A DNA stretch of 57,409 nucleotides, taken from contig MHTR01000006.1 of the NCBI GenBank assembly GCA_001823155.1, forward strand, positions 1 through 57,409, given 5' to 3'. The notes under the pieces are model-generated. The model worked only from the letters and a program-made list of their open reading frames with translations. It was not told the DNA's origin and did not search any database. This DNA comes from Candidatus Wildermuthbacteria bacterium RIFCSPHIGHO2_01_FULL_48_25. Lineage in GTDB: Bacteria > Patescibacteriota > Minisyncoccia > Minisyncoccales > UBA10102. Below, in pieces: positions 9,289-47,575 of this stretch. Numbering within the stretch: position 1 is the stretch's first letter; every line of letters begins with the position of its first letter. The position numbers and the translations under genes are program-made.

Positions 9289-9411
9289 CCCGTTAGAAGC
9301 AGATCGCGATCAGCGCCAATCCGCAAACATTATTTATTTTCATGATCTTGTATCATTGATTTATGCATTGGACTTATCTCGTGAGCGATCGCGGCTTCTA
9401 ACGGGATCCAT
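9289..9411 (-). mobile_element. MITE-like copy C of the CCCGTTAGA element
   Basis: Sense strand: ATGGA-T-CCCGTTAGAAGC...GCTTCTAACGGG-ATGGA(CGTA = pilB start). 12-nt perfect termini with an imperfect extension (GCGATCGC blocks). Confidence 0.7.
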
Positions 9412-10728: not shown

Positions 10729-11799
10729 TTATTGAAGTCCCCGGAGCGCGGCTCCCACTGCCACCGCGTGTGAAGGGCCAAGATTCTTAAGCGTTTGCTC
10801 GAGCACAGGAGGGTAATACAAGTTTTCAAAAGGGTTGGCGATACTCGTGGGTTTTTTCACGGTTGTTTCCACATACTCTCGCAATCCAGGGAGCAAAGCG
10901 GTTCCGCCTGCCAGAATGATCTTCTCGACCTCTTTCCCTCCCTGCTGTTGGAATTCTTTTGAAACCCGCTCGAGCTCCGAAAGAAGAATGTCTACCATGG
11001 GAGAAAGGATAAGGGCAAGGTTCTTGTCTGTCATGCCTTTTTCAAACTTGTAGCGTTCCGCCATTTTGGCGTCAACAGACAGGGATTTTGCAATGCGGTC
11101 GGTCAAACTGTTTCCCGCCACGTCCACGCTGTGGGAAACCCGCAAGGTGCGCTTTGCAATAATGTTCACGGTGGTGCTCTGCGCGCCAATGTCTAGGAGC
11201 GCAAGAGAACTCTTGTCTTCCTCGTTTACGCACGAGCGCATGATACAGAACACCTCTGCTTCCAATCCCGAAAGCGTCAGCCCCGCGAGATTCGCGATTT
11301 CCTGGTACTGGTTCACGATCTCCTTGGGAACCGCCACCATCAAAATTTTCAAAGGGGTCTTTTGCTCAAAGGTTCCTTCCAAGAGCTGCCAGTCGAACGT
11401 CACCTCGGAAAGCGGAAGGGGAACGTGCCTTCTTGCTTCAAACGCCACGGCTTCTGGCAATTCCTCTTTGGTCATAGGCGGAAGCTCGAAATGCGTGAAG
11501 AAGCTGGAGAAATCGGGGAGTGAAAAAAGCGCGTCTTTAGTCTGGATTTTTGCTTCCTGCAGAATTGCCTTGAGCACCCGCGCGATATCCTGCTTTGAAA
11601 GCACCAGGGTGTTCCGCTCAAAGGTGCGGAAGGGTTTGTCGTACAATGCGGAACTCTGAAGCTCCGCGTAATTCTTCAAACTCTTCCTGCCTCCCCAGCG
11701 CTTCACCTCGGCTATCTTCACGGCAGATGTTCCAATGTCAACCCCAAGAAAACTCTTGGGCAATACTGTGAATGAACGAAAAGGTAAGGGTAGTTTCAT
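10729..11799 (-). CDS. pilM: type IV pilus assembly protein PilM (actin-like ATPase fold)
   Basis: 356 aa. LGVDIGTSAVKIAE, LLDIGAQSTTVNI and ILAGGTALLPGL motifs of the PilM/FtsA-like family. Confidence 0.85.
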   Translation of the reverse strand: MKLPLPFRSFTVLPKSFLGVDIGTSAVKIAEVKRWGGRKSLKNYAELQSSALYDKPFRTFERNTLVLSKQDIARVLKAILQEAKIQTKDALFSLPDFSSFFTHFELPPMTKEELPEAVAFEARRHVPLPLSEVTFDWQLLEGTFEQKTPLKILMVAVPKEIVNQYQEIANLAGLTLSGLEAEVFCIMRSCVNEEDKSSLALLDIGAQSTTVNIIAKRTLRVSHSVDVAGNSLTDRIAKSLSVDAKMAERYKFEKGMTDKNLALILSPMVDILLSELERVSKEFQQQGGKEVEKIILAGGTALLPGLREYVETTVKKPTSIANPFENLYYPPVLEQTLKNLGPSHAVAVGAALRGLQ

Positions 11800-11887
11800 C
11801 CCGTTAGAGATAGGAAACGCTTCGCAACGTTTCCGTCATTCGTTGGTAAACTATAAAACCTTTTGTGAAATCTCTAACGGGATTCAT
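11800..11887 (-). mobile_element. MITE-like copy D (internal-deletion derivative of copy A)
   Basis: Sense strand: ATGAA-T-CCCGTTAGAGAT...GGAAACGTTGCGAAGCGTTTCCTATCTCTAACGGG-ATGAA(ACTA = pilM start). The 24 nt next to pilM (cccgttagagataggaaacgcttc on the plus strand) are identical to the pilC-proximal end of copy A. Confidence 0.8.
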
Positions 11888-11927
11888 GTAGTATATCAAG
11901 AAAGCTGCGCAAGTGCCACAGTTGTAT

Positions 11928-11936
11928 ATTGTACCA
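11928..11936 (-). promoter_or_regulatory. candidate extended -10 promoter of pilus operon 1
   Basis: The minus strand reads TGgTACAAT about 40 nt upstream of copy D. No good -35. It lies between the tRNA-Ser gene and the first operon element. Confidence 0.3.
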
Positions 11937-11964
11937 CACCAAAAACCAAAGAGAAAAGAAAAAG

Positions 11965-12051
11965 CGGCGGGGGTGAGATTCGAACTCACGAAGGACTTGC
12001 ATCCTTAATGGTTTTCAAGACCATCCGGATAAACCGCTCCCGCACCCCGCC
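11965..12051 (-). tRNA. tRNA-Ser(UGA)
   Basis: Hand fold: acceptor GGCGGGG/CCCCGCC, anticodon stem ATGGT/ACCAT with loop CTTGAAA, long variable arm, T-loop TTCGAAT. Confidence 0.85.
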
Positions 12052-12064
12052 CTGAGCATAAATG

Positions 12065-12151
12065 CGGAGAGGGTGGGATTCGAACCCACGAAGGGTATTA
12101 CCCCTTAACACATTAGCAGCGTGCCGCTTTCGGCCACTCAGCCACCTCTCC
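12065..12151 (-). tRNA. tRNA-Ser(GCU)
   Basis: Acceptor GGAGAGG/CCTCTCC, anticodon loop CTGCTAA, long variable arm (AGGGGTAATACCCT), T-loop TTCGAAT. Confidence 0.85.
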
Positions 12152-23662: not shown

Positions 23663-23806
23663 TCCACCAATTATACTGCACACAAAAATGCCTGCAAGCA
23701 TTATTCTCCACAGCTTGACATTTTCCCAAATATGGTGTTATTATATAGACCAATCGTCTTGTACGAGATTGTGAATGCGGGACAAAACGGCAGAAGGAGG
23801 AAGACG

Positions 23807-25054
23807 GTGCGAAAAGTTCTTGTATTGGGTTTGTTCTTTTCATTAGTACTGGCGCTTGCGTCGGTTGGATGCGCGAGTAAATCCAGCGTAAACAAGCTGG
23901 AATCTCGCGTGACGCGAGTGGAGGTAGGGAACGAAGAGGCGCATACGAAAATCGCCGGCGTGAATACCGGTCTCGAAGTCACGAACGAGAATGTCAACAA
24001 TCTGGGCAACCGAGTAGGCGAGGTAGAAACTCTCGGCGTACGCGTGGGCGAAGCGGAGGTTGACATAACCAACCTCGCGAACGAACTCGCCAGAAAACTC
24101 CCGCGAGAACAGATGATCGAGGTTCTCAGCGAGCTGTACGGCCTCGACTCAAACCTGGACGAGGAAACAAAAAAACTCGTTCAGAACATCCGCGACGCAG
24201 GGTACGCAAAATTGGCAAGGGAAGTCCTGGCAAAAGAGCTGAAGGTTCCCCTGGAAGAACTTGCAAGACTGAATGAGCGACTAACGAACGCTGAAACGAA
24301 ACTGGCAGCGCCAACGCCGACTCCTACGGCTACACGCGCTCCTGCGCCAACGCCAACAGCCACAACAGCCCCTGCGCCCACGGCCACCCCGGTTCCTGTG
24401 CGGACCGTAATACCAACTGCGGCCCCAATACCAACTCGTGTCGCGCCCAGCCCAACGCCAACAAAGACCCCGGTTCCGACGCGCGTGGGCGTCACAGACA
24501 TTCCAAAGGAAACCGTCTTCACGCTGAAGGTGGAGCTCGACAAGAACGGCGACAACAAAGTTCTTGCCATAGTTTCAAACCTACGGGACTGGGCTGACGA
24601 CCCAGGATGTCCAAACGACGCCTTGGCGCAGCGACCAGAAACGTCTTTGGAGTGGGTGCGGTGCCTCACAACAAAAGACAGACTCACGGAGTGGCTCGGC
24701 GTTAGCGAGGTCCCAACACCGGGCGAAGAGTGGCTGGTCCTCGACAAGACCGTGTTCGCGGTCTCCAAAGTAAAGGAAGAGCCCCTCGGGAGACAACCCG
24801 CATTCTGGGTTGAGATCAGACCGTCATCTTTAGCCGACCATCTCCTGGTCGAACTCGAAGCAGGAGCTGTAAAACTGACGGGCGCTGCAGACCCAGGCGG
24901 TGAAACTATTCAGCCCAATGGCCGCTTCCTCGAACGGGACAGGTACGTGGGCTGGATGACGAAATGGACAGTAGGAAAGTGGGCCAGAGGGGAGCCGCCC
25001 AACTACCAAAAACCAGGCGTGTATGCCGTGTATCCGCTCCTCACGGAACGGTAA
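23807..25054 (+). CDS. GC-rich putative lipoprotein: coiled-coil region, Pro/Thr-rich linker, C-terminal globular domain
   Basis: I propose GTG 23807, preceded by GGAGGAAGACG (strong SD). VRKVLVLGLFFSLVLALASVGC is lipobox-like. A heptad-like region (..NRVGEVETLGVRVGEAEVD..) is followed by ~60 aa of PT repeats. Visibly higher GC than its neighbours. Confidence 0.6.
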   Translation: MRKVLVLGLFFSLVLALASVGCASKSSVNKLESRVTRVEVGNEEAHTKIAGVNTGLEVTNENVNNLGNRVGEVETLGVRVGEAEVDITNLANELARKLPREQMIEVLSELYGLDSNLDEETKKLVQNIRDAGYAKLAREVLAKELKVPLEELARLNERLTNAETKLAAPTPTPTATRAPAPTPTATTAPAPTATPVPVRTVIPTAAPIPTRVAPSPTPTKTPVPTRVGVTDIPKETVFTLKVELDKNGDNKVLAIVSNLRDWADDPGCPNDALAQRPETSLEWVRCLTTKDRLTEWLGVSEVPTPGEEWLVLDKTVFAVSKVKEEPLGRQPAFWVEIRPSSLADHLLVELEAGAVKLTGAADPGGETIQPNGRFLERDRYVGWMTKWTVGKWARGEPPNYQKPGVYAVYPLLTER

Positions 25055-30941: not shown

Positions 30942-32774
30942 ATGAAAAACTTTGGGAAGAACATCGCGGTAGTCATTTTGATCCTGCTGGGCCTGGCCTT
31001 GCTCTTTTCGTTGTTTGCCCAACCTTTTGAAGCGCCCAAGACTGTTTCATTGACGCAGCTTACAAAAGACATTAACGAAGATAGGGTGGAAAAAATAGAG
31101 GTGGCAGACCAAGTGCTCGCTGTTTCTTATACAGACGGAAGCAAGGTACAAAGCAGAAAAGAAACAGAGGCAGCTCTTTCTGAAACGTTAACGAACCTGG
31201 GAGTGGAACAGGGGAAACTGGCGAACGTGGAAATCGCGAACGTTGAGCAAACGAGCTTTTTAGAAATCATTTCTCCTTTCCTGTTCATTCTGCTCCCCAT
31301 TCTGTTCTTCGTGTTCTTTTTCTTCTTCATCTTCAGGCAAGCGAGAGCGGGTTTGGGCCAGGCGTTTGATTTCACCCGTTCAAAAGCAAGACTCTTTGGA
31401 GCTGAAGGCCAGGTGAAAGAACGGGTTTCGTTCAAGGACGTGGCGGGGCTGAAAGAGGCGAAAGAAGAACTCTATGAAGTGGTGGATTTCTTGAAGAACC
31501 CGAGAAAGTACTTGGAAATGGGAGCAAAGATCCCAAGGGGAGTATTGCTCGTGGGAGCTCCTGGAACAGGAAAAACATTACTCGCGCGCGCAGTGGCTTC
31601 TGAAGCAGGAGTGCCGTTCTTTTCTGCTTCTGGTTCTGAATTCGTTGAGCTCTTTGTGGGAGTGGGAAGCTCAAGAGTACGGGATCTCTTTGGCACCGCA
31701 AAAAAAGCAGGGCGCGCCATCATCTTTATTGATGAATTAGACGCAATCGGGCGCATGCGCGGCATGGGATTCACTGGAGGGCATGAAGAGCGGGAACAAA
31801 CCCTGAATCAAATATTGGTGGAAATGGACGGGTTTGACCGTGAAGACGGAAGGATCGTGCTCTCGGCTACTAACAGACCTGACGTCTTAGATCCGGCACT
31901 GCTTCGGCCTGGCCGCTTCGACAGACGGATCATCCTCGACCTTCCCGACGTCAACGACCGCGAAGAGATATTGAAAATACACAGCAAGGGCAAACCTCTC
32001 GCAGAAAACACAAAACTAAGAGAGATCGCGGAACGAACTCCGGGATTCGCGGGAGCTGACTTAGCCAACCTCATGAACGAGGCAGCCATTCTCGCGGCCC
32101 GCCACAACAAAACACATATCGCGCAGGATGACCTTACCGAGAGCATTGAAAAGGTTTTGCTGGGGCCGGAGCGCAAGAGCCACGTGCTTTCCAGGAACGA
32201 AAAAGAGGTGACTGCGTACCACGAAGCAGGGCATGCCTTGGTTTCCTCGTCTTTGCCTTTCGCAGACCCGGTGCGCAAGATTTCCATCATCTCAAGAGGA
32301 CGGGCAGGCGGATACACCTTAAAACTGCCTGAATTCGACAAGCACCTAAAAACAAAGGCGGAATTCCTCGCAGACTTAGCCACCTTAATGGGAGGATATG
32401 TTGCTGAAAAACTCGTGTTCAAAGACGTCACCACGGGAGCAAGCAACGACCTGCAGCAGGCGTCAGAACTGGCGCGAAAGCTCGTCAAAGAATTCGGCAT
32501 GTCTGAAAAGTTCGGACCTGTCACCTTTGGAAGGGCAGAGGGCGGCATGATGTTCCCCGGAGACTGGGGAGAAACCAAACCCTATTCAGACGCGGTTGCC
32601 GCAGACATTGACCAGGAAGTCGCAAAGATCTTGGAACAGTCACAGAAAACCGCGGAGCGCGTCTTAAAGCAGCGCAAAGGTACTCTTGCTAAGATAGCCA
32701 AGGTTCTGATAGAAAAGGAAACAATAGAGCGAGACGAGTTTGAGAAGTTGATCGCGAAACAAAGGGGCCAGTAG
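30942..32774 (+). CDS. ftsH: ATP-dependent zinc metalloprotease FtsH
   Basis: Start at ATG 30942 (MKNFGKN...). [18 protein letters not shown] and HEAGHAL motifs. Confidence 0.95.
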
Positions 32775-32837
32775 CTTAGCGGCTAAAGCTTCAAGCTTAT
32801 ACCTTGATGAGCGATGGTTCGAGTCCATCCTGGCCCA
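32765..32837 (+). tRNA. tRNA-Ile(UAU)
   Basis: Acceptor GGGCCAG/CTGGCCC, D stem GCTT/AAGC, anticodon stem TCAAG/CTTGA with loop CTTATAC, T arm GATGG-TTCGAGT-CCATC. The first 10 nt overlap the last ftsH codons. Confidence 0.8.
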
Positions 32838-32842
32838 CACAG

Positions 32843-32915
32843 GGGCGGTTAGTTCACCGGTCAGAACGCCTCGTTGACATCGAGGAAGTAACAGGTCCGA
32901 TTCCTGTACCGCCCA
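32843..32915 (+). tRNA. tRNA-Val(GAC)
   Basis: Acceptor GGGCGGT/ACCGCCC, anticodon stem CCTCG/CGAGG with loop TTGACAT, T arm ACAGG-TCCGATT-CCTGT. Confidence 0.8.
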
Positions 32916-32960
32916 CACTTCGTCGCTAGCGCTCCTCAGTGCCTTCGGCCCACTACCTTT

Positions 32961-33617
32961 ATGAACCTATTGAAAATTCTGTTCGAAGATGATACGATGC
33001 TCGTGTTAGAAAAGCCCTCGGGCATAGATATTGCCGGGCTCCAGAAGCACCTCAAAAGTGGATATATTCCTGCCCATAGGCTAGACAAAGAAACTTCAGG
33101 CCTTTTGCTCGTTGCAAAAACGCCAGAAGCCCTAGACTTCTTCCAAGCGCAGTTCAAGGAACGAAAGGTGGAGAAGAAATATATCTGCCTTGTGGTGGGG
33201 GATATGAAAGAGAATGAGGGAAGGGTTGAAAGTTTACTCGGAAGAGCTCCTGGAGACAGAAGAAAACAGAAAGTATTCCTGCCGGGAGAAACAACCGGAG
33301 GAGAAAAGCGAGAAGCAGTGAGCGAGTACCGAGTGCTCGAACGGTTCAACGATTACACGCTCCTGGAGGTAAGCCCAAAAACAGGAAGAAAGCACCAGAT
33401 ACGGGCACAATTCGCTTCTCTCCACCATCCTCTCGCGGGAGACAAGCTGTACGGGTTCAAAAACCAGAAAATCCCAAAAGGGCTGAAGCGGCACTTCCTT
33501 CACGCAAGCTATCTAAAAGTACCAACCCTAAAGGGAGACTCAAAAGAGTTCACTCTAAAATTGCCAGAAGATTTAGAAAGTATACTAAAAGAATTGCAAC
33601 ATGGAAACAAAGATTGA
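32961..33617 (+). CDS. RluA-family pseudouridine synthase
   Basis: 218 aa. [15 protein letters not shown] catalytic motif and GRKHQIRAQ. Confidence 0.85.
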
Positions 33618-34068
33618 AACATTCAACAAAGCATTTTTGAAAACCATTCCCGACATTCGCCCGGGTGACACGGTTCAGGTTCACCAGAAGATCAAAGAAG
33701 GGGACAAGGAAAGAATCCAGGTGTTTGAAGGCGTGGTTCTGGCAATGAAACACGGGAAGGGCGTGAGCGGCATGATTACCGTTCGGAAGGTAAGCCAGGG
33801 AGTTGGTATTGAGAGAATCTTTCCCCTGCACTCCCCGTTCATTGAGAAAATAGAGGTGGTGAAGCGGGCAAAAGTAAGGAGAGCAAAACTCTACTATTTG
33901 AGAGACGCGAAGGGAAAGAAAGCAAAGTTGAAAGCAAAAGAGTTCAACCTCGAAAAACCAGAAGAGCCAGCTCCTGTAGTGGAAGAGGCAAAACCAGAAG
34001 AAGTACCGGCAGAACAGAACCAGGAGCAAGCTCCTGCAAAAGAAGAAACGAAGACAGCTGAAGCATAA
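33601..34068 (+). CDS. rplS: 50S ribosomal protein L19 with Lys/Glu/Pro-rich C-terminal extension
   Basis: [31 protein letters not shown]...[24 protein letters not shown] is canonical L19. About 45 extra C-terminal residues. Confidence 0.9.
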
Positions 34069-34073
34069 CTTCT

Positions 34074-34156
34074 GCGCGGGTGGTGAAACCCGGTAAACAC
34101 GCTAGCTTGAGGTGCTAGTGCCGCAAGGCTTGGAGGTTCAACTCCTCTCCCGCGCA
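34074..34156 (+). tRNA. tRNA-Leu(GAG)
   Basis: Acceptor GCGCGGG/CCCGCGC, anticodon stem CTAGC/GCTAG with loop TTGAGGT, long variable arm. Confidence 0.85.
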
Positions 34157-34164
34157 CTAAATGA

Positions 34165-34236
34165 GGGCGGTTAGCTCAGTGGTAGAGCGACTCTCTTACA
34201 CAGAGTAGGCCATAGGTCCGAGTCCTATACCGCCCA
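34165..34236 (+). tRNA. tRNA-Val(UAC)
   Basis: Acceptor GGGCGGT/ACCGCCC, anticodon stem ACTCT/AGAGT with loop CTTACAC. CCA follows in the genome. Confidence 0.85.
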
Positions 34237-34240
34237 CCAT

Positions 34241-34312
34241 GCCGCGGTAGCTCAGTGGTAGAGCATTGGTCTGAAGAACCATTGGTCGTCAGTTCAATTC
34301 TGACCCGCGGCA
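34241..34312 (+). tRNA. tRNA-Phe(GAA)
   Basis: Acceptor GCCGCGG/CCGCGGC, D arm GCTCAGTGGTAGAGC, anticodon loop CTGAAGA. Confidence 0.85.
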
Positions 34313-34362
34313 CATTGAGGCGCAAAATGCGCCGAAATCCCGAGCGAAAGCGAGGGACGTAG

Positions 34363-34437
34363 GCGGGAGTAATTCAGTGGCAGAATGTCTCGTTGCCAAC
34401 GAGAATGTCGGGGGTTCGAATCCCCTCTCCCGCTCCA
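34363..34437 (+). tRNA. tRNA-Gly(GCC), CCA encoded
   Basis: Acceptor GCGGGAG/CTCCCGC, anticodon stem TCTCG/CGAGA with loop TTGCCAA, T-loop TTCGAAT, 3' TCCA. Confidence 0.85.
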
Positions 34438-41046: not shown

Positions 41047-41050
41047 GATG

Positions 41051-41133
41051 TGCCCAGGGTGGGAGTCGAACCCACAAACCCTTTCGGGTCAAGGATTTTA
41101 AGTCCTCTGCGTAAACCATTCCGCCACCCGGGC
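41051..41133 (-). tRNA. tRNA-Leu(UAA)
   Basis: Acceptor GCCCGGG/CCTGGGC, anticodon stem GAGGA/TCCTT with loop CTTAAAA, long variable arm, T-loop TTCGACT. Confidence 0.85.
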
Positions 41134-41141
41134 ATTCTTTG

Positions 41142-41212
41142 AGGCGCCTGGCGGAGTTGAACCGCCGTACGGGGATTTGCAGTCCCCTGCCTAGCCGCTC
41201 GGCCAAGGCGCC
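41142..41212 (-). tRNA. tRNA-Cys(GCA)
   Basis: Acceptor GGCGCCT/AGGCGCC, anticodon stem GGGGA/TCCCC with loop CTGCAAA, T-loop TTCAACT. Confidence 0.85.
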
Positions 41213-42997: not shown

Positions 42998-43081
42998 CCC
43001 GTTAGAAGTTAGCTGCTTTCATGCCTCATTACATCCTGTTAGCACCGTGCATATTTGTGGGAAACTTCTAACGGGATTCAT
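42998..43081 (-). mobile_element. MITE-like copy F of the CCCGTTAGA element
   Basis: Sense strand: ATGAAT-CCCGTTAGAAGTT...GTGCTAACAGGAT...AACTTCTAACGGG-ATGAAT-AAGT-ATG(infB). The upstream gene now ends ..HESR-TAG inside the left repeat. Removing the element restores ..CAT GAA TAA. Confidence 0.75.
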
Positions 43082-46233: not shown

Positions 46234-46242
46234 ATGTAGCGG

Positions 46243-46329
46243 CGGCGAGAGGAGGATTCGAACCTCCGATACCCTTACGGGTATAGCGGTTTTCGAGACC
46301 ACCCCGTTCAACCACTCCGGCATCTCGCC
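46243..46329 (-). tRNA. tRNA-Ser(CGA)
   Basis: Acceptor GGCGAGA/TCTCGCC, anticodon loop CTCGAAA, long variable arm (TATACCCGTAAGGGTATC), T-loop TTCGAAT. Confidence 0.85.
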
Positions 46330-46337
46330 CTTTTCTG

Positions 46338-46408
46338 TGGACCTGAGGGGAATCGAACCCCTGCTCTGTGACTGCCAGCCACATGCACTGCCATTATGCA
46401 ACAGGCCC
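46338..46408 (-). tRNA. tRNA-Ala(GGC)
   Basis: Acceptor GGGCCTG/CAGGTCC with a G3:U70 pair, anticodon stem TGTGG/TCACA with loop CTGGCAG, T-loop TTCGATT. Confidence 0.85.
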
Positions 46409-46417
46409 AATATCTTG

Positions 46418-46489
46418 TGTCCCCGGGAAGAATTGAACTCCCATTTTACCCTTAGGACGGGTCTATTCTATCCGTTGAATTACGAGGAC
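46418..46489 (-). tRNA. tRNA-Arg(CCU)
   Basis: Acceptor GTCCTCG/CGGGGAC, D stem ATTC/GAAT, anticodon loop GTCCTAA (one mismatch at the top of the stem), T-loop TTCAATT. Confidence 0.75.
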
Positions 46490-46580
46490 AAATCATAAGT
46501 ACCTTATCACAAAAACTGGCCCTTCACAACCCCTTCGCTCCGCTCAGGGCATGCCTGTGGAAAAGTATTACAAAAGAGGA

Positions 46581-46608
46581 TTGACAAGAGATTCTCTATT
46601 CATATAAT
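46581..46608 (+). promoter_or_regulatory. consensus sigma70 promoter of the acidic mini-ORF
   Basis: TTGACA (46581-46586), 16-nt spacer, TATAAT (46603-46608). Confidence 0.6.
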
Positions 46609-46696
46609 ACGCTTTGTAATCGTTTTACAACCAATACGTCTTTGTACTTTGTAATAACGTAAAAAGGTCGCACTAGGCACTCAACACAAACGCGGT

Positions 46697-46870
46697 ATGG
46701 CACTCTTAGAAGAAATAGAAAACGAATTTTTGGCTCAAGACGGAGAAGAGGAGGTGTTTCCGGGAGAAGAGGAAACGGTAGAGTTGGAGGAGGCGGACGA
46801 AGATGAAGACGATGACGATGATGACGAACTCGAAGACTCGGGGTTTGACCCGGAAATAGGGAACGTGTAA
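46697..46870 (+). CDS. 57-aa extremely acidic protein (29 D/E, no K/R/H)
   Basis: Below the track length cutoff. My translation is MALLEEIENEFLAQDGEEEVFPGEEETVELEEADEDEDDDDDDELEDSGFDPEIGNV. Consensus promoter upstream and a hairpin terminator downstream. The overlapping minus-strand ORFs look like antisense artefacts. Confidence 0.5.
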   Translation: MALLEEIENEFLAQDGEEEVFPGEEETVELEEADEDEDDDDDDELEDSGFDPEIGNV

Positions 46871-46881
46871 CCGCTTGAACA

Positions 46882-46918
46882 AACGCCCCGCCATCACTGG
46901 CGGGCGTTTTCTTTCTTT
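46882..46918. terminator. hairpin terminator between convergent genes
   Basis: AACGCCCCGCCA-tcac-TGGCGGGCGTT followed by TTCTTTCTTT. The stop codon of 46894-47415 sits in the loop. Confidence 0.65.
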
Positions 46919-47415
46919 GAGTTTTTCTTTTGTTCTCCAGCTTCCTCTGTTCCGCGCTCCAGCAGAAAAATCCTATTGTGCAATCCTTTGAGAAGAAAGT
47001 TCGTTTCGTGAGACCGTTCAATCAGCTGGTCTATCTTTTTTGAAAGGTCTTCAATATGCTTGTCTTTCGTTTCAATGACATCTTGGAGAACCGCAATCAT
47101 CTCGTCTTTGCCCTTGAGCACTTCTCCCGTTTCTTCCTTGGTCGGGCCAAGGACTTCCTTGGCCCGACCAAGGGAATCTTCTTCGGAAGCAGAAACGAAT
47201 ACTTCCTCTTCTATGGGCTCTCCCTCAAGGGCTTTGAGCAAGAATTCCTTGTTCAAAAGATACATCATGCCCTTTTCACGCTGCTCTTTTTTCATGATGC
47301 TTTCCAAGGAAATGCCCGACGTTTCCAAGGCGTCTTTTAACACGCGCATCAAGCGAACATCGCTCTCGCCCGTGAGCCGCATGGCTTCTGCTATTGAGAT
47401 AAACTCTTCATTCAT
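46894..47415 (-). CDS. HTH (MerR/excisionase-like) plus coiled-coil protein
   Basis: Start at ATG 47415 (MNEEFISIAEAMRLTGESDVRLMRVLK...); the longer track ORF runs into tRNA-His. The C-terminal half is heptad-rich. Confidence 0.5.
   Translation of the reverse strand: MNEEFISIAEAMRLTGESDVRLMRVLKDALETSGISLESIMKKEQREKGMMYLLNKEFLLKALEGEPIEEEVFVSASEEDSLGRAKEVLGPTKEETGEVLKGKDEMIAVLQDVIETKDKHIEDLSKKIDQLIERSHETNFLLKGLHNRIFLLERGTEEAGEQKKNSKKENARQ
47136..47173. repeat. double palindromic repeat inserted in frame in 46894-47415
   Basis: CCTTGGTCGGGCCAAGG-ACTT-CCTTGGCCCGACCAAGG, with the same CTTGGYCSGRCCAAG core as the pilD and tsaD repeats. Encodes ..SLGRAKEVLGPTKE.. Confidence 0.8.
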
Positions 47416-47423
47416 AACGTTTT

Positions 47424-47500
47424 TGGGGTGAGCGACGGGATTCGAACCCGCGGTCTTCGCTGCCACAGAGCGACGCTTTAGCCGCTAAGCTACGCCCACC
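47424..47500 (-). tRNA. tRNA-His(GUG) with encoded G-1 and CCA
   Basis: G-1 plus acceptor GTGGGCG/CGCTCAC, discriminator C, D stem GCTT/AAGC, anticodon stem TCGCT/AGCGA with loop CTGTGGC, 3' CCA. Confidence 0.85.
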
Positions 47501-47503
47501 ATG

Positions 47504-47575
47504 TGCTCCCACGAGGAATCGAACCTCGATTTGCTCTTTAGAAGAGAGCCGCTCTATCCGTTGAGTTATGGGAGC
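47504..47575 (-). tRNA. tRNA-Arg(UCU)
   Basis: Acceptor GCTCCCA/TGGGAGC, anticodon stem GCTCT/AGAGC with loop CTTCTAA, T arm CGAGG-TTCGATT-CCTCG. Confidence 0.85.

Follow-up and report, generated by a model that had tools for sequence, protein, structure and literature searches.

Correia elements of Neisseria are short elements with 26-bp terminal inverted repeats and a TA target duplication, and they contain no transposase gene. They are inserted next to genes, are not known to sit precisely at start codons, and are transcribed within mRNAs, where their long hairpins can affect processing and expression. No autonomous partner of these elements is known to us. IS200/IS605 and REP/RAYT elements are very small, have sequence-specific targets and abundant palindromic derivatives, and have hairpin ends that are recognized probably in single-stranded DNA. 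Their transposases are of the HUH/Y1 type, and they have neither element-spanning terminal inverted repeats nor a target duplication. Rickettsia palindromic elements are short palindromic mobile repeats of small, host-dependent genomes, and are inserted in-frame inside coding regions; in or at genes they are tolerated because the reading frame is preserved; we know of no enzyme encoded by them. GIY-YIG homing endonucleases (I-TevI, T4 Seg) are selfish, lie between conserved genes, use host signals and have a large DNA-binding domain. They copy into the allelic empty site by recombination, without inverted repeats, target duplication or miniatures. The piggyBac transposon has CCCTAGAAAGATA ends and a TTAA duplication.

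A repeat-nuclease system, Ssn/NTS, was described in 2025. Ssn is a single-domain GIY-YIG protein of ~94 aa without a DNA-binding domain (Chenal et al., Nat Commun 2025, PMC11893778). On both sides of its gene are repeats that form hairpins and that occur in many copies over the genome (PMC11893778). Each NTS/SRM repeat is a self-contained 20–30-nt hairpin with the motif HGTCWY... (PMC11893778). The resemblance of the repeat-gene-repeat arrangement to an insertion sequence was noted by the authors, and short deletion derivatives, empty sites, start-codon targeting and Patescibacteria are absent from the paper (PMC11893778).

The element studied here, element D, belongs to a Candidatus Wildermuthbacteria genome, that of an uncultured groundwater bacterium. 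The window, i.e., the whole analyzed stretch of 57,409 nucleotides, contains a pilus operon in the order pilM-N-O-(orf)-pilB-RR-pilT-pilC (RR, response regulator), and D lies at the start of pilM (Table 1). The unit of D is probably 84 nt long, has terminal repeats of 13 bp and is flanked by TGAA as a direct duplication of 4 bp. The 12-nt inverted repeat bounding the core was perfect (CCCGTTAGAGAT at 11800–11811 on the + strand, reverse complement at 11870–11881). The outermost bases flanking this repeat were complementary in 94% of the elements of the family (n = 143). The last A of the pilM-proximal repeat is the A of the pilM ATG, and the same repeat contains the stop codon of a short ORF.

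Table 1. Positions of element D, its parts, its neighbors and the other copies in the window.
Feature	Position	Strand	Remarks
Copy A, full-length element with GIY-YIG ORF (5748–6035)	5751–6030	−	at pilC start, between pilT and pilC; empty in L127
77-nt short copy, response-regulator gene start codon	7471–7547	−	repeat variant ...GAAAC; site empty in L127
117-nt short copy, pilB start codon	9289–9405	−	flanks ATGGA
pilM	10729–11799	−	Pfam PilM_2, E = 9.5e-44; first gene of operon
Downstream copy of target duplication TGAA	11795–11798	−	pilM bases 2–5
Element D, 84-nt non-autonomous element (probable extent)	11799–11882	−	82-nt core 11800–11881 plus 1 terminal base per side
pilM-proximal terminal inverted repeat of D	11799–11811	−	gene strand ATCTCTAACGGG-A
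27-codon relic ORF with TAA stop	11804–11887	−	first 6 codons MNPVRD, as in copy A nuclease N-terminus
Subterminal hairpin of D, GGAAACGTT-GCGA-AGCGTTTCC	11813–11834	−	1 unpaired T separates it from pilM-proximal repeat
Promoter-proximal terminal inverted repeat of D	11870–11882	−	gene strand T-CCCGTTAGAGAT
Upstream copy of target duplication TGAA	11883–11886	−	with A at 11887, original pilM start codon
Second promoter-like site TGATATACT	11890–11919	−	GTGGCA, 18-nt spacer, TATACT with TG
Candidate promoter, extended −10 TGTGGTACAAT	11928–11938	−	TGTGGTAGAAT in empty-site relative; read from sequence only, unmapped
78-nt short copy, class I aminoacyl-tRNA synthetase gene start codon	17694–17771	+	flanks ATGGAA
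78-nt short copy, 10 nt upstream of infB	42998–43075	−	within last codons of upstream ORF

The folding of D was calculated for RNA and for single-stranded DNA. The RNA hairpin had a free energy of −34.9 kcal/mol (z = −5.65), and the ssDNA hairpin −19 kcal/mol (z = −4.9). Two cis-structures conserved in the family are kept in D: the 13-bp terminal stem and a subterminal stem beside the gene-proximal arm. The latter is the GGAAACG/CGTTTCC hairpin of the original prediction, which had placed it within 24 nt shared with copy A; the hairpin is real, but only its 3' arm lies within these 24 nt. Rfam covariance models were searched against the window, and only tRNAs reached the gathering score. For positions 11700–11960, the best match was Ysr100, with 18 bits against a threshold of 47 (E = 0.4).

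The pilM upstream region was compared with that of relatives, as had been suggested, and the site was found empty. In L126–L129, whose PilM proteins were 77–80% identical to that of the window, D was absent at the orthologous position. The empty site reads TATACTAC-ATGAA-ACTACC (also written ...TATACTAC-ATGAAACTACC, ending ...TACATGAAACTACC), and the filled site reads TATACTAC-ATGAA-[T...A]-TGAA-ACTACC. The sequence TTTCTTGATATACTAC-ATGAAACTACC of L126–L129 corresponds to ...TACATGAA[T-82 nt-A]TGAAACTACC of the window. Because the empty site was found in a relative, D can be identified as a precise insertion between A and TGAA that duplicated TGAA. Since the element ends with ...CGGG-A, the ATG of pilM was rebuilt as A + TGAA. 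In L127, the pilB/RR and pilT/pilC junctions were also empty; this relative lacks three of the four operon copies, and its pilus operon is still intact. Contigs with identical PilM (L001–L005) and members with >90% identity (L140–L142) had identical elements, with no empty site and no divergence. Recent mobility of D was therefore not shown, because all sampled strains with >90% PilM identity carry D and because its retained interior is 18% diverged from copy A.

Different lengths of the target duplication were considered. A 5-bp duplication (ATGAA) fits D alone and fails on the change of the host ATG to GTG at elements with C...G ends. The 5-bp and 6-bp models were rejected, and the −1/+1 complementarity seen in 94% of copies is unexplained by the 5-bp model. 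A 4-bp duplication with a 13-bp repeat fits best. Across the family, the informative middle positions of the flanks matched in 60–64% of cases, compared with ~29% expected. The flank duplications elsewhere were often imperfect; in a 6-nt register, 19 of 143 were exact and 64 of 143 had at most one mismatch. Two copies, the window copy at 17694 and L099, resemble a 5-bp duplication.

Copy A lies in the same operon as D, 6 kb downstream. Its core is 278 nt (5752–6029), and the encoded protein matched Pfam GIY-YIG over residues 11–77 (E = 3e-17). Direct comparison on the gene strand bore out the predicted shared ends, with exactly 24 nt (GAAGCGTTTCCTATCTCTAACGGG) identical at the pilM side and exactly 12 nt at the other end; the 24-mer occurs nowhere else in the window. 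Since MAFFT scattered the interior of D along copy A, the interiors were compared by local alignment with 2000 shuffles. Identity was 32/39, and the score of 19 was not equaled in any of the 2000 shuffles (mean 8.8, maximum 17). D differs from copy A by two internal deletions and about 18% divergence in the retained interior. Therefore, the proposed internal-deletion origin holds for an A-like element, not necessarily for this copy A. Copy A is a candidate trans-acting partner of D. Both folds have the same two-stem architecture. In copy A, the partner arm of the subterminal-hairpin sequence is ~145 nt away, so the GGAAACG/CGTTTCC pairing there is a long-range stem. In D, the 15-bp long-range stem seen in full-length copies has collapsed into the subterminal hairpin.

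The 12-mer repeat occurred 12 times in the window with at most 2 mismatches, compared with 3.1 expected (0/100 shuffles), and its 8-nt core, CCGTTAGA, occurred 12 times compared with 1.15 expected. The repeat occurrences pair up as six inverted pairs, i.e., six copies. Four of them sit in the pilus operon, and five abut a gene start. As gene starts make up 29 of the 273 ATGRA sites, the probability of this placement is 7e-5. At the copy near infB, the ATGAAT is not a start codon. A relative has at the pilB site a 77-nt element with a variant repeat, CCCGTACGA. Of 52 copies with T...A ends from different genomes, 32 lie directly at the start of an ORF that has at least 80 codons. At copy A, whose ends are C...G, the start codon of pilC is GTG, whereas the pilC of the relative starts with ATG. 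In five further copies with C...G ends, the left junction shows ATG and the right one GTG. The element thus provides the host start codon with its first base (A or G). Gene callers extend or miss ORFs at these junctions. The original prediction had overlooked that the target is duplicated, that the start codon is rebuilt and that insertion at gene starts is general.

The full-length layout, ATGAA[T/C]-CCCGTTAGAGAT...TTCCTATCTCTAACGGG-[A/G]TGAA, was found in eight copies from eight genomes. The nuclease ORF begins at the host ATG and extends across the two repeats (MNPVRD...FLSLTG) to its stop codon, the duplicated TGA, where it overlaps the rebuilt start codon. In seven of the eight copies, there is a 4-nt overlap between the nuclease stop and the downstream gene as called or listed; the exception is L145, where the called downstream start lies 25 nt into the nuclease ORF, though the GTGA junction is present. 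Full-length copies are located within operons, e.g., between dnaG and rpoD, ftsW and murG, or a PBP gene and a Mur ligase gene. They contain nothing besides the nuclease ORF in 278 nt. The nuclease has 85–95 aa and a single domain, as also seen in the structure model. Its fold is closest to UPF0213 and Slx1, with UPF0213 BH0048 (E = 6e-9), EF2693 and Slx1 as the best solved matches; no Ssn structure was found in the PDB. The nuclease homologues formed 4878 clusters. Among 120 homologue clusters, the in-frame, repeat-encoded N-terminus MNPVRD was present in 81 and the end LSLTG in 110.

Short copies were found in at least 120 loci of other genomes, in Patescibacteria, Planctomycetota, Desulfobacterota, Omnitrophota, Nitrospirota and other phyla. 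A search of these 120 loci for full-length copies of this subfamily gave none; the GIY-YIG genes that it did reveal were all more distant. A second D-type copy of 82 nt is located at a different gene start in another Parcubacteria genome (L121), with a compensated version of the subterminal hairpin, GGATGCGC/GCGCATCC. No description of the element family was found by full-text literature searches.

The base pairing of the family was investigated. Full-length copies showed 100% pairing in the terminal helix. For the 15-bp long-range helix, paired cells made up 95.8% and 5 pairs changed on both sides, while slid controls gave at most 50%. Repeat positions 10–12 vary, yet remained Watson-Crick in 93, 90 and 74% of cases, respectively, compared with 45, 49 and 32% expected. 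Pairing was at chance level from position 13, and G-T pairs accounted for just 1–5%.

Element D is a genuine MITE. It has terminal repeats, a target duplication, a small size (84 nt), a longer relative that encodes an enzyme, and copies at several unrelated sites. Its sole coding content is the 27-codon frameshifted relic ORF, and no transposition gene is present. The MITE relation claimed in the original prediction is supported by the empty site with duplicated TGAA, the interior homology, the retention of both cis-structures and the second D-type copy in L121.

The short ORF runs from 11887 to 11807 (MNPVRDFTKGFIVYQRMTETLRSVSYL) and is followed by TAA (11806–11804), CGGG and the pilM ATG (11799–11797). 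The original pilM ATG, with its native upstream context, now heads this ORF. An upstream ORF of 27 codons that stops at the TAA in the repeat, 4 nt before the pilM AUG, had been correctly described, but its ending near the ATG is not conserved. Among short copies at gene starts, the ORF reached the element end in only 15 of 37 (eight with TAA 4 nt before the ATG, four with ATGA overlaps and three with in-frame fusions). Therefore, ORF coupling is not a conserved family property among short copies, and the ORF is best regarded as a relic of the nuclease ORF that has been frameshifted and whose stop falls in the repeat by chance.

Promoter-like sites were found only upstream of D, and the extended −10 is conserved in the empty-site relative, which agrees with the predicted position of D between the promoter region and the pilM ATG. 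The −10 of the second site ends 2 nt before the upstream ATG. It was not taken as the main promoter, because with this spacing transcription in the relative that has the empty site would begin only after the pilM ATG. Since D sits between the promoter region and the ATG, transcripts of the pilus operon should begin with D. That D is their 5' leader follows from its position; a start inside D is not excluded, and no transcript data are available. In the absence of expression data, D is expected to influence pilM only slightly or in a modulatory way, without a dedicated regulatory function. A −35 kcal/mol hairpin bordering both ATGs could reduce initiation instead of being neutral.

The results suggested that D is a MITE of a ~280-bp element that encodes only an 85–95-aa single-domain GIY-YIG nuclease, and that its precise insertion at pilM was nearly harmless and its mobilization occurred in trans (probability about 0.8). 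D would be mobilized, now or formerly, by the nuclease of copy A; this is an inference, and mobilization needs biochemistry or genetics. The nuclease may be a structure-specific enzyme of the Slx1/UPF0213/Ssn type that recognizes the hairpin of both ends, probably in single-stranded DNA. D presumably persists as its insertion at this position does nearly no harm. No Shine-Dalgarno sequence is displaced, because the genome hardly uses such sequences (12 of 56 genes had even a weak match). Ribosomes starting from the old ATG may translate through the element and so open its hairpin, terminate 4 nt short of the rebuilt ATG and then reinitiate. It is also suggested, tentatively and with rather less confidence, that these are the first recognized transposons with a bare GIY-YIG nuclease as the sole protein. 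Their ends would be the arms of a hairpin, and their targets R-TNNA-Y sites, in Patescibacteria chiefly A-TGAA starts. Start and stop codons would be taken from the duplicated target and the host start rebuilt, so that the element is hidden in operons as a translationally coupled cassette, and D would be one of many miniatures.

Alternatively, the copies could serve a domesticated Ssn-like single-strand nuclease as recognition sites, in the manner of the NTS of Neisseria. Clustered at the pilus genes, they would allow this enzyme to cleave single-stranded DNA that is incoming or replicating, and thereby to modulate recombination or transformation at the pilus locus, with the leader position incidental. 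The nuclease is indeed a SsnA-sized single GIY-YIG domain, repeats that form hairpins and are found again elsewhere in the genome border its gene on both sides, and the strict Watson-Crick pairing suits DNA over RNA. The concentration of copies in one pilus operon also fits, as the type IV pilus serves DNA uptake. NTS cluster near particular genes and modulate transformation, and NTS-ssnA-NTS is insertion-sequence-like (Chenal et al. 2025, PMC11893778). However, the published SRM motif (HGTCWY N0-2 YYVSBRH N0-5 WNVSBRG N0-2 RNCYNB) had 0 matches in the window and 7 scattered matches, about background, in 1.01 Mb of related loci. Precise, duplicating insertions at unrelated gene starts (rpoD, murG, aminoacyl-tRNA synthetase) and before infB are the pattern of a selfish element, and the operon remains intact in the relative that lacks most of its copies. 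This explanation is unlikely. A cis-regulatory RNA leader dedicated to the pilus operon (an attenuator, a thermosensor, or an RNA that binds a protein or ligand), with the copies forming a shared regulon, would account for a stable structure directly before the ATG, for a short ORF ending 4 nt before it and for copies preceding four operon genes. Such a leader is very improbable, as the structure is missing from the corresponding position of a relative that otherwise shares the conserved leader and promoter. The same family precedes unrelated genes in many phyla, no Rfam family matched, G-U pairs are avoided in the terminal stem, and the short ORF is not conserved.

Movement of the short copies by an unrelated transposase (e.g., a DDE enzyme with 4-bp TNNA duplications), with the GIY-YIG gene a passenger or addiction module in one variant, is unlikely. 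A 13-bp repeat starting with CCC and a 4-bp T..A duplication are a cut-and-paste DDE signature, and for four of the six copies in the window, the repeat variant is matched by no nuclease copy there. To our knowledge, a GIY-YIG nuclease alone has no strand-transfer or DNA-joining activity. The origin of the 4-bp duplication is unexplained by such a nuclease, and a second, unlinked enzyme cannot be excluded. A passenger gene is nevertheless difficult to reconcile with an ORF that starts and ends inside the repeats and flanks in 81–110 of 120 homologue clusters and in eight genomes, and with full-length copies that carry nothing else. The covarying stem is superimposed on the nuclease coding sequence, which speaks for a long joint evolution of the gene with the element ends. 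No transposase was found among the eleven window proteins scanned against Pfam, although the window was not exhaustively annotated.

The assignment of D to a transposon family has several consequences. The pilus operon carries parasitic insertions in its leader and at three intergenic junctions, which matters for the prediction of starts, promoters and expression. The family is compact and very widespread and has a testable design: a hairpin element, a 4-bp duplication, a borrowed host start, a TGA stop and a rebuilt ATG or GTG. It offers a route to the role of thousands of orphan small GIY-YIG genes, to whether the Ssn-type repeat-nuclease pair is a mobile element, and to how transposons are tolerated by tiny, gene-dense genomes that lack Shine-Dalgarno sequences. 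Together with its small enzyme, the conserved 13-bp hairpin may be useful as a sequence- and structure-specific DNA tool.

Kinship with integron attC sites (RYYYAAC...GTTRRRY), suggested by TCTAAC/GTTAGA, was rejected; the order is reversed, there is no cassette gene, and comparison with the empty site gives a simple 84-nt insertion. The likeness to piggyBac (CCC... ends, 4-bp T..A duplication) is only a superficial parallel. Unlike Correia elements, the elements studied here have an identified partner, which encodes a GIY-YIG protein and not a DDE transposase, and the host start codon is rebuilt by the element. They differ from IS200/IS605 and REP/RAYT in that the only ORF is GIY-YIG and in having a 13-bp terminal repeat and a 4-bp duplication. 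Compared with homing endonucleases, the protein is a bare 85-aa domain, and it scored 26.3 bits against TIGR01453, for which the cut-off is 56. In contrast to Rickettsia palindromic elements, insertion is at the start codon and a full-length form was identified. The closest known relative is the Ssn/NTS system, but the Ssn repeat motif is absent here. The pairing constraints of the element family suit recognition of a DNA hairpin, as in Ssn. In the present family, repeats do flank the nuclease gene and recur, yet they are not whole hairpins: the flanks provide one arm each of the same hairpin. The two arms lie at opposite ends and the element itself is the loop, the ORF crosses both arms, and insertion occurs at start codons with a 4-bp duplication.

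On the gene (minus) strand, the region of element D, a short mobile element at the start of pilM, read ...CTTGATATACTAC ATGAA T-CCCGTTAGAGAT-[58 nt]-ATCTCTAACGGG-A TGAA ACTACCC..., with two 12-nt arms in perfect complementarity. A metagenome scan with PilM yielded relatives (L126–L129) with 77–80% protein identity. Upstream of pilM these read ...TTTCTTGATATACTAC-ATGAAACTACC... and contained no element. The sole difference between the window and this empty site was the exact insertion T-[82 nt]-A-TGAA. The original prediction, which had proposed a comparison of pilM upstream regions in related genomes and had taken D for a miniature inverted-repeat element (MITE), was supported by this empty site and the precise insertion in the window. 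The element was also absent from the pilB/response-regulator junction of a relative, and the pilT-pilC interval there read CGATAATCT-ATGAAGTTTAAC without a GIY-YIG copy. The pilB start of a relative carried a 77-nt element with identical flanks (ATGGA) to its window counterpart. Its repeat was CCCGTACGAAATT/AATTTCGTACGGG in place of CCCGTTAGA, a compensatory change in both arms. The pilB-start copies represent either an old shared insertion with arms co-evolving in place or a second subfamily at the same site.

The window belongs to a Candidatus Wildermuthbacteria population from aquifer metagenomes. The 12-mer with at most two mismatches occurred 12 times in it (3.1 expected), as did the 8-nt core CCGTTAGA (1.15 expected); no shuffle gave as high a count for either. 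The repeat matches paired up as six inverted pairs: D, four other short copies, and copy A, a full-length element at the pilC start encoding a GIY-YIG domain protein (E = 3e-17). The ORF adjoining D was PilM, followed 3' by pilN, pilO, a small ORF, pilB, the response regulator, pilT and pilC. Two tRNA-Ser genes lay directly upstream of D and pilM on the same strand, so read-through transcription is possible; the window held 18 tRNA genes in several clusters.

Positions of the elements and associated features (window coordinates unless a locus is named)
Feature	Position	Remark
Copy A	5752-6029	278 nt
Copy A ORF	5748-6035	GIY-YIG domain protein
Long-range stem arms of copy A	5765-5779 / 5921-5935	
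Short copy	7471-7547	
Short copy	9289-9405	
Element D	11800-11881	
Arms of D	11870-11881 / 11800-11811	
Local hairpin of D	11813-11834	9 bp
Short ORF in D	from 11887	TAA at 11806-11804, then CGGG, then pilM ATG
Short copy	17694-17771	
Short copy	42998-43075	
Internal CTAACGGGAT	7505-7514, 17727-17736, 43033-43042	in 77–78-nt copies
pilM	10729-11799	minus strand
Extended -10 TGTGGTACAAT	11928-11938	kept as TGTGGTAGAAT in relative
Promoter-like GTGGCA-18-TATACT	ends at 11890	
tRNA clusters	11964-12151, 32765-34437, 41050-41212, 46241-47575	
pilB-start 77-nt element of 77%-identity relative	L127:6943-7019, L126:3206-3282, L128:3940-4016	counterpart of window 9289-9405
Non-Patescibacteria loci	L013, L016, L020, L026, L028, L031-L033, L038, L040, L070, L075, L081, L082 and others	
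Tandem or nested arrays	L021:2943-3104, L117:8-222, L015:5741-5863, L074:2335-2437, L078:2089-2231	

The ends common to D and A were exactly 12 nt on one side and 24 nt on the other. The relation proposed between the two would have been undermined if the 24 nt were common outside elements; in the window, the 24-mer was present in D and A alone. With the shared ends left out, positions 3–42 of D matched positions 55–98 of A at 32 of 39 sites. The alignment scored 19; the 2000 shuffles averaged 8.8 and reached 17 at most, so that none was as good. The aligned interior comprised the 5' arm of a stem and the sequence immediately 5' of it. Both elements folded with the same architecture: a 14–15-bp terminal stem, one unpaired T on the 3' side, and a second stem. 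The latter was a local hairpin in D and, in A, a 15-bp pairing GGAAACGCTTCAATC / GATTGAAGCGTTTCC with about 145 nt of coding sequence between. From the shared ends, the interior alignment and the common folding, D is an A-like element minus two internal segments, and one of these deletions turned the long-range stem into the hairpin of D. Since divergence was 18% in the retained interior but nil over the 36 terminal nt, D came from the same subfamily but not necessarily from this copy of A. The element ends appear to be under constraint.

The pattern CCCGTTAGA-N50-80-TCTAACGGG was scanned in one genome per species, giving at least 120 loci. The following values refer to the 143 distinct copies among the loci listed. 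The flank consensus was RTNNAY on both sides, and 94% of copies had complementary bases directly outside the 12-nt arms. As direct repeats, the informative middle positions of the flanks, two in number, matched in 60% and 64%, versus about 29% expected by our calculation from base frequencies. The simplest reading of these sequences is a 13-bp terminal repeat, Y-CCCGTTAGA...TCTAACGGG-R, with a 4-bp target duplication TNNA. It agrees with three observations. In D, the terminal A plus TGAA gave back the pilM ATG. Copy A had C...G ends, and its pilC start is now GTG, compared with ATG in the relative; in five more C...G-ended copies the left flank had ATG and the right flank GTG.

The nuclease homologues formed 4878 clusters, and those named by source were annotated as Patescibacteria lineages. 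Among the 120 closest clusters, 81 began in frame with M-N-P-V-R-D, from the flank ATG and left repeat, and 110 ended with ...F-L-S-L-T-G, from the right repeat. All eight full-length copies, from eight genomes, read ATGAA[T/C]-CCCGTTAGAGAT...TTCCTATCTCTAACGGG-[A/G]TGAA, and in seven the nuclease stop codon overlapped a called or listed downstream gene by 4 nt. In the eighth (L145) the GTGA junction was present, but the downstream start called was 25 nt inside the nuclease ORF. The copies lay between dnaG and rpoD, ftsW and murG, PBP and Mur ligase genes, and pilT and pilC, and before an ATP-synthase subunit gene and ruvX. The conserved junctions and overlaps indicate that the host gene supplies the start codon of the element and the duplicated target supplies its stop, TGA; translation would pass on via the ATGA or GTGA overlap. 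Residues 1–6 of the nuclease were disordered in the predicted structure, which fits an N-terminal extension that is a by-product of the repeat, not a functional protein part. Another GIY-YIG gene (L096:1243-1525) had variant ends CCCTGTTAAAT...ATTTAACAGGG and the C-terminus ...YLTG* on TGAAG; the ORF-through-repeat layout thus extends to subfamilies with other repeats.

The closest solved proteins by sequence were the UPF0213 proteins BH0048 (E = 6e-9) and EF2693. The predicted structure ranked BH0048 first, followed by Slx1, EF2693 and the UvrC N-terminal domain. Branched DNA and stem-loops are the substrates of Slx1, a structure-specific nuclease. The homing-endonuclease model gave the copy-A protein only 26 bits, below its 56-bit cut-off.

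In the eight full-length copies, the terminal helix was 100% paired and the 15-bp long-range helix was paired in 95.8% of cells, with five pairs altered on both sides; sliding the partner by 1–3 columns reduced pairing to at most 50%. Both long-range arms code for protein (LRKRF and LKRFL). These nuclease-gene stretches with near-identical peptides were mutual reverse complements and covaried in eight genomes, indicating a nucleic-acid stem superimposed on coding sequence. Among the 147 short copies listed, repeat positions 10–12 were variable (more than 20 triplets). They were nevertheless Watson-Crick paired in 93%, 90% and 74%, versus 45%, 49% and 32% expected; pairing was at chance from position 13. 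G-T pairs made up 1–5% within the stem and 10–16% outside. The covariation, the Watson-Crick upkeep and the few G-T pairs argue, at the level of sequence, that pairing between the two ends is required, and that it more likely takes place in DNA than in RNA. When folded as single-stranded DNA, every short copy formed a hairpin, with z-scores between -4 and -7. In a Parcubacteria genome from another site (L121), a gene start reading ATGCGT carried an 82-nt copy with the architecture of D, whose subterminal hairpin showed compensating changes (GGATGCGC/GCGCATCC). Derivatives of the D type are thus recurrent, and what is conserved in the hairpin is its structure. Three second-type copies of 77–78 nt each had a third, internal CTAACGGGAT, through which the upstream arm can form a different stem instead of the terminal one. 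These may be composite or nested elements.

Five of the six window copies adjoined a start codon. The copy at 42998 lay in the last codons of the gene preceding infB. Because ATGAAT does not serve as a start codon there, what is targeted is a sequence rather than the initiation of translation itself. Only 29 of 273 ATGRA pentamers in the window headed an ORF of at least 100 codons (P = 7e-5 for the start bias). Among the loci listed from other genomes, 32 of 52 T...A-ended copies lay directly at the start of an ORF with 80 codons or more, compared with 12 of 87 C...G-ended copies. The gene-start bias is explained by target preference plus loss of gene-disrupting insertions, which cannot be separated here. 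The same 9-nt repeat core occurred outside Patescibacteria, in Planctomycetota including anammox bacteria, Desulfobacterota, Omnitrophota, Nitrospirota, Gammaproteobacteria and WOR-3. Judged by eye, most of these loci were C...G-ended, with GTTTAC, GTAAAC or GTTGAC flanks, and they were rarely at gene starts; one Paenibacillus match (L081) lacked the usual flanks and may be chance. According to a prediction reported in one paper, GIY-YIG genes have left Patescibacteria by horizontal transfer, which fits this cross-phylum spread. Several genomes had tandem or nested arrays of short elements about 6 nt apart or overlapping, whose mismatched flanks suggest recombination between copies.

Even a weak 4-mer Shine-Dalgarno match preceded only 12 of 56 genes in the window (gene starts such as 2137-2907, 6032-7078 and 23732-25054), and the empty-site pilM leader had no Shine-Dalgarno sequence. 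Translation initiation in this organism is largely Shine-Dalgarno-independent, and insertion at the ATG would thus cost no ribosome-binding site. The original ATG, with its native upstream context kept, now heads a relic ORF. This is the 27-codon ORF of the original prediction, which was found together with the repeats and shared ends as described. Ribosomes on it would, by inference, open the -35 kcal/mol hairpin, stop at the TAA 4 nt before the rebuilt pilM ATG, and could reinitiate. Among the loci listed, 37 short copies at gene starts had an upstream start copy. Eight stopped at TAA as in D, 4 at an ATGA overlap and 21 at 11–84 nt before the host ATG; 3 fused in frame and 1 entered the host gene out of frame. 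As the stop layout was not general, the coupling in D was regarded as a lucky frame, not a selected device, and the ORF as real but probably incidental. Promoter-like sequences were found only upstream of D. The extended -10 site was favoured, since the TATACT spacing in the empty-site relative would put the transcription start after the ATG. Whichever is used, the element would lie within the pilM transcript; this leader role is inferred from position only, without transcript data.

The literature available to the analysis contained nothing relevant on the repeat sequence, or on GIY-YIG in combination with MITE, terminal repeat, duplication, Patescibacteria or start codon. Among described systems the Ssn family comes closest. 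Its members are single-domain GIY-YIG enzymes of 94 aa, which cleave single-stranded DNA next to the hairpin repeats NTS/SRM; these repeats flank the Ssn gene and are scattered over the genome, and its authors noted an insertion-sequence likeness (PMC11893778). The repeat-plus-nuclease logic is common to both. However, the SRM motif had no match in the window and was at background level elsewhere, and the D/A elements lack it. Their hairpin arms at the element ends, ORF overlapping the arms, target duplication, miniature derivatives, empty sites and start-codon insertion are not in the Ssn paper (PMC11893778). In a relative, the interval between tRNA-Ser and pilM contained another small GIY-YIG gene (L127:4085-4410), which shared 48% identity with copy A and had a self-contained palindrome on each side (ATTTTCTTTGAAAAT / ATTTTCAAAGAAAAT), then TAAACG. 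This repeat-gene-repeat layout is nearer to the Ssn/NTS arrangement than the D/A type. The wider finding is the family of elements as a whole, a MITE and its parent element with an Ssn-like nuclease (cd10448 membership was not established). Should the GIY-YIG protein turn out to be the enzyme that moves these elements, the family would be a new type of transposon.
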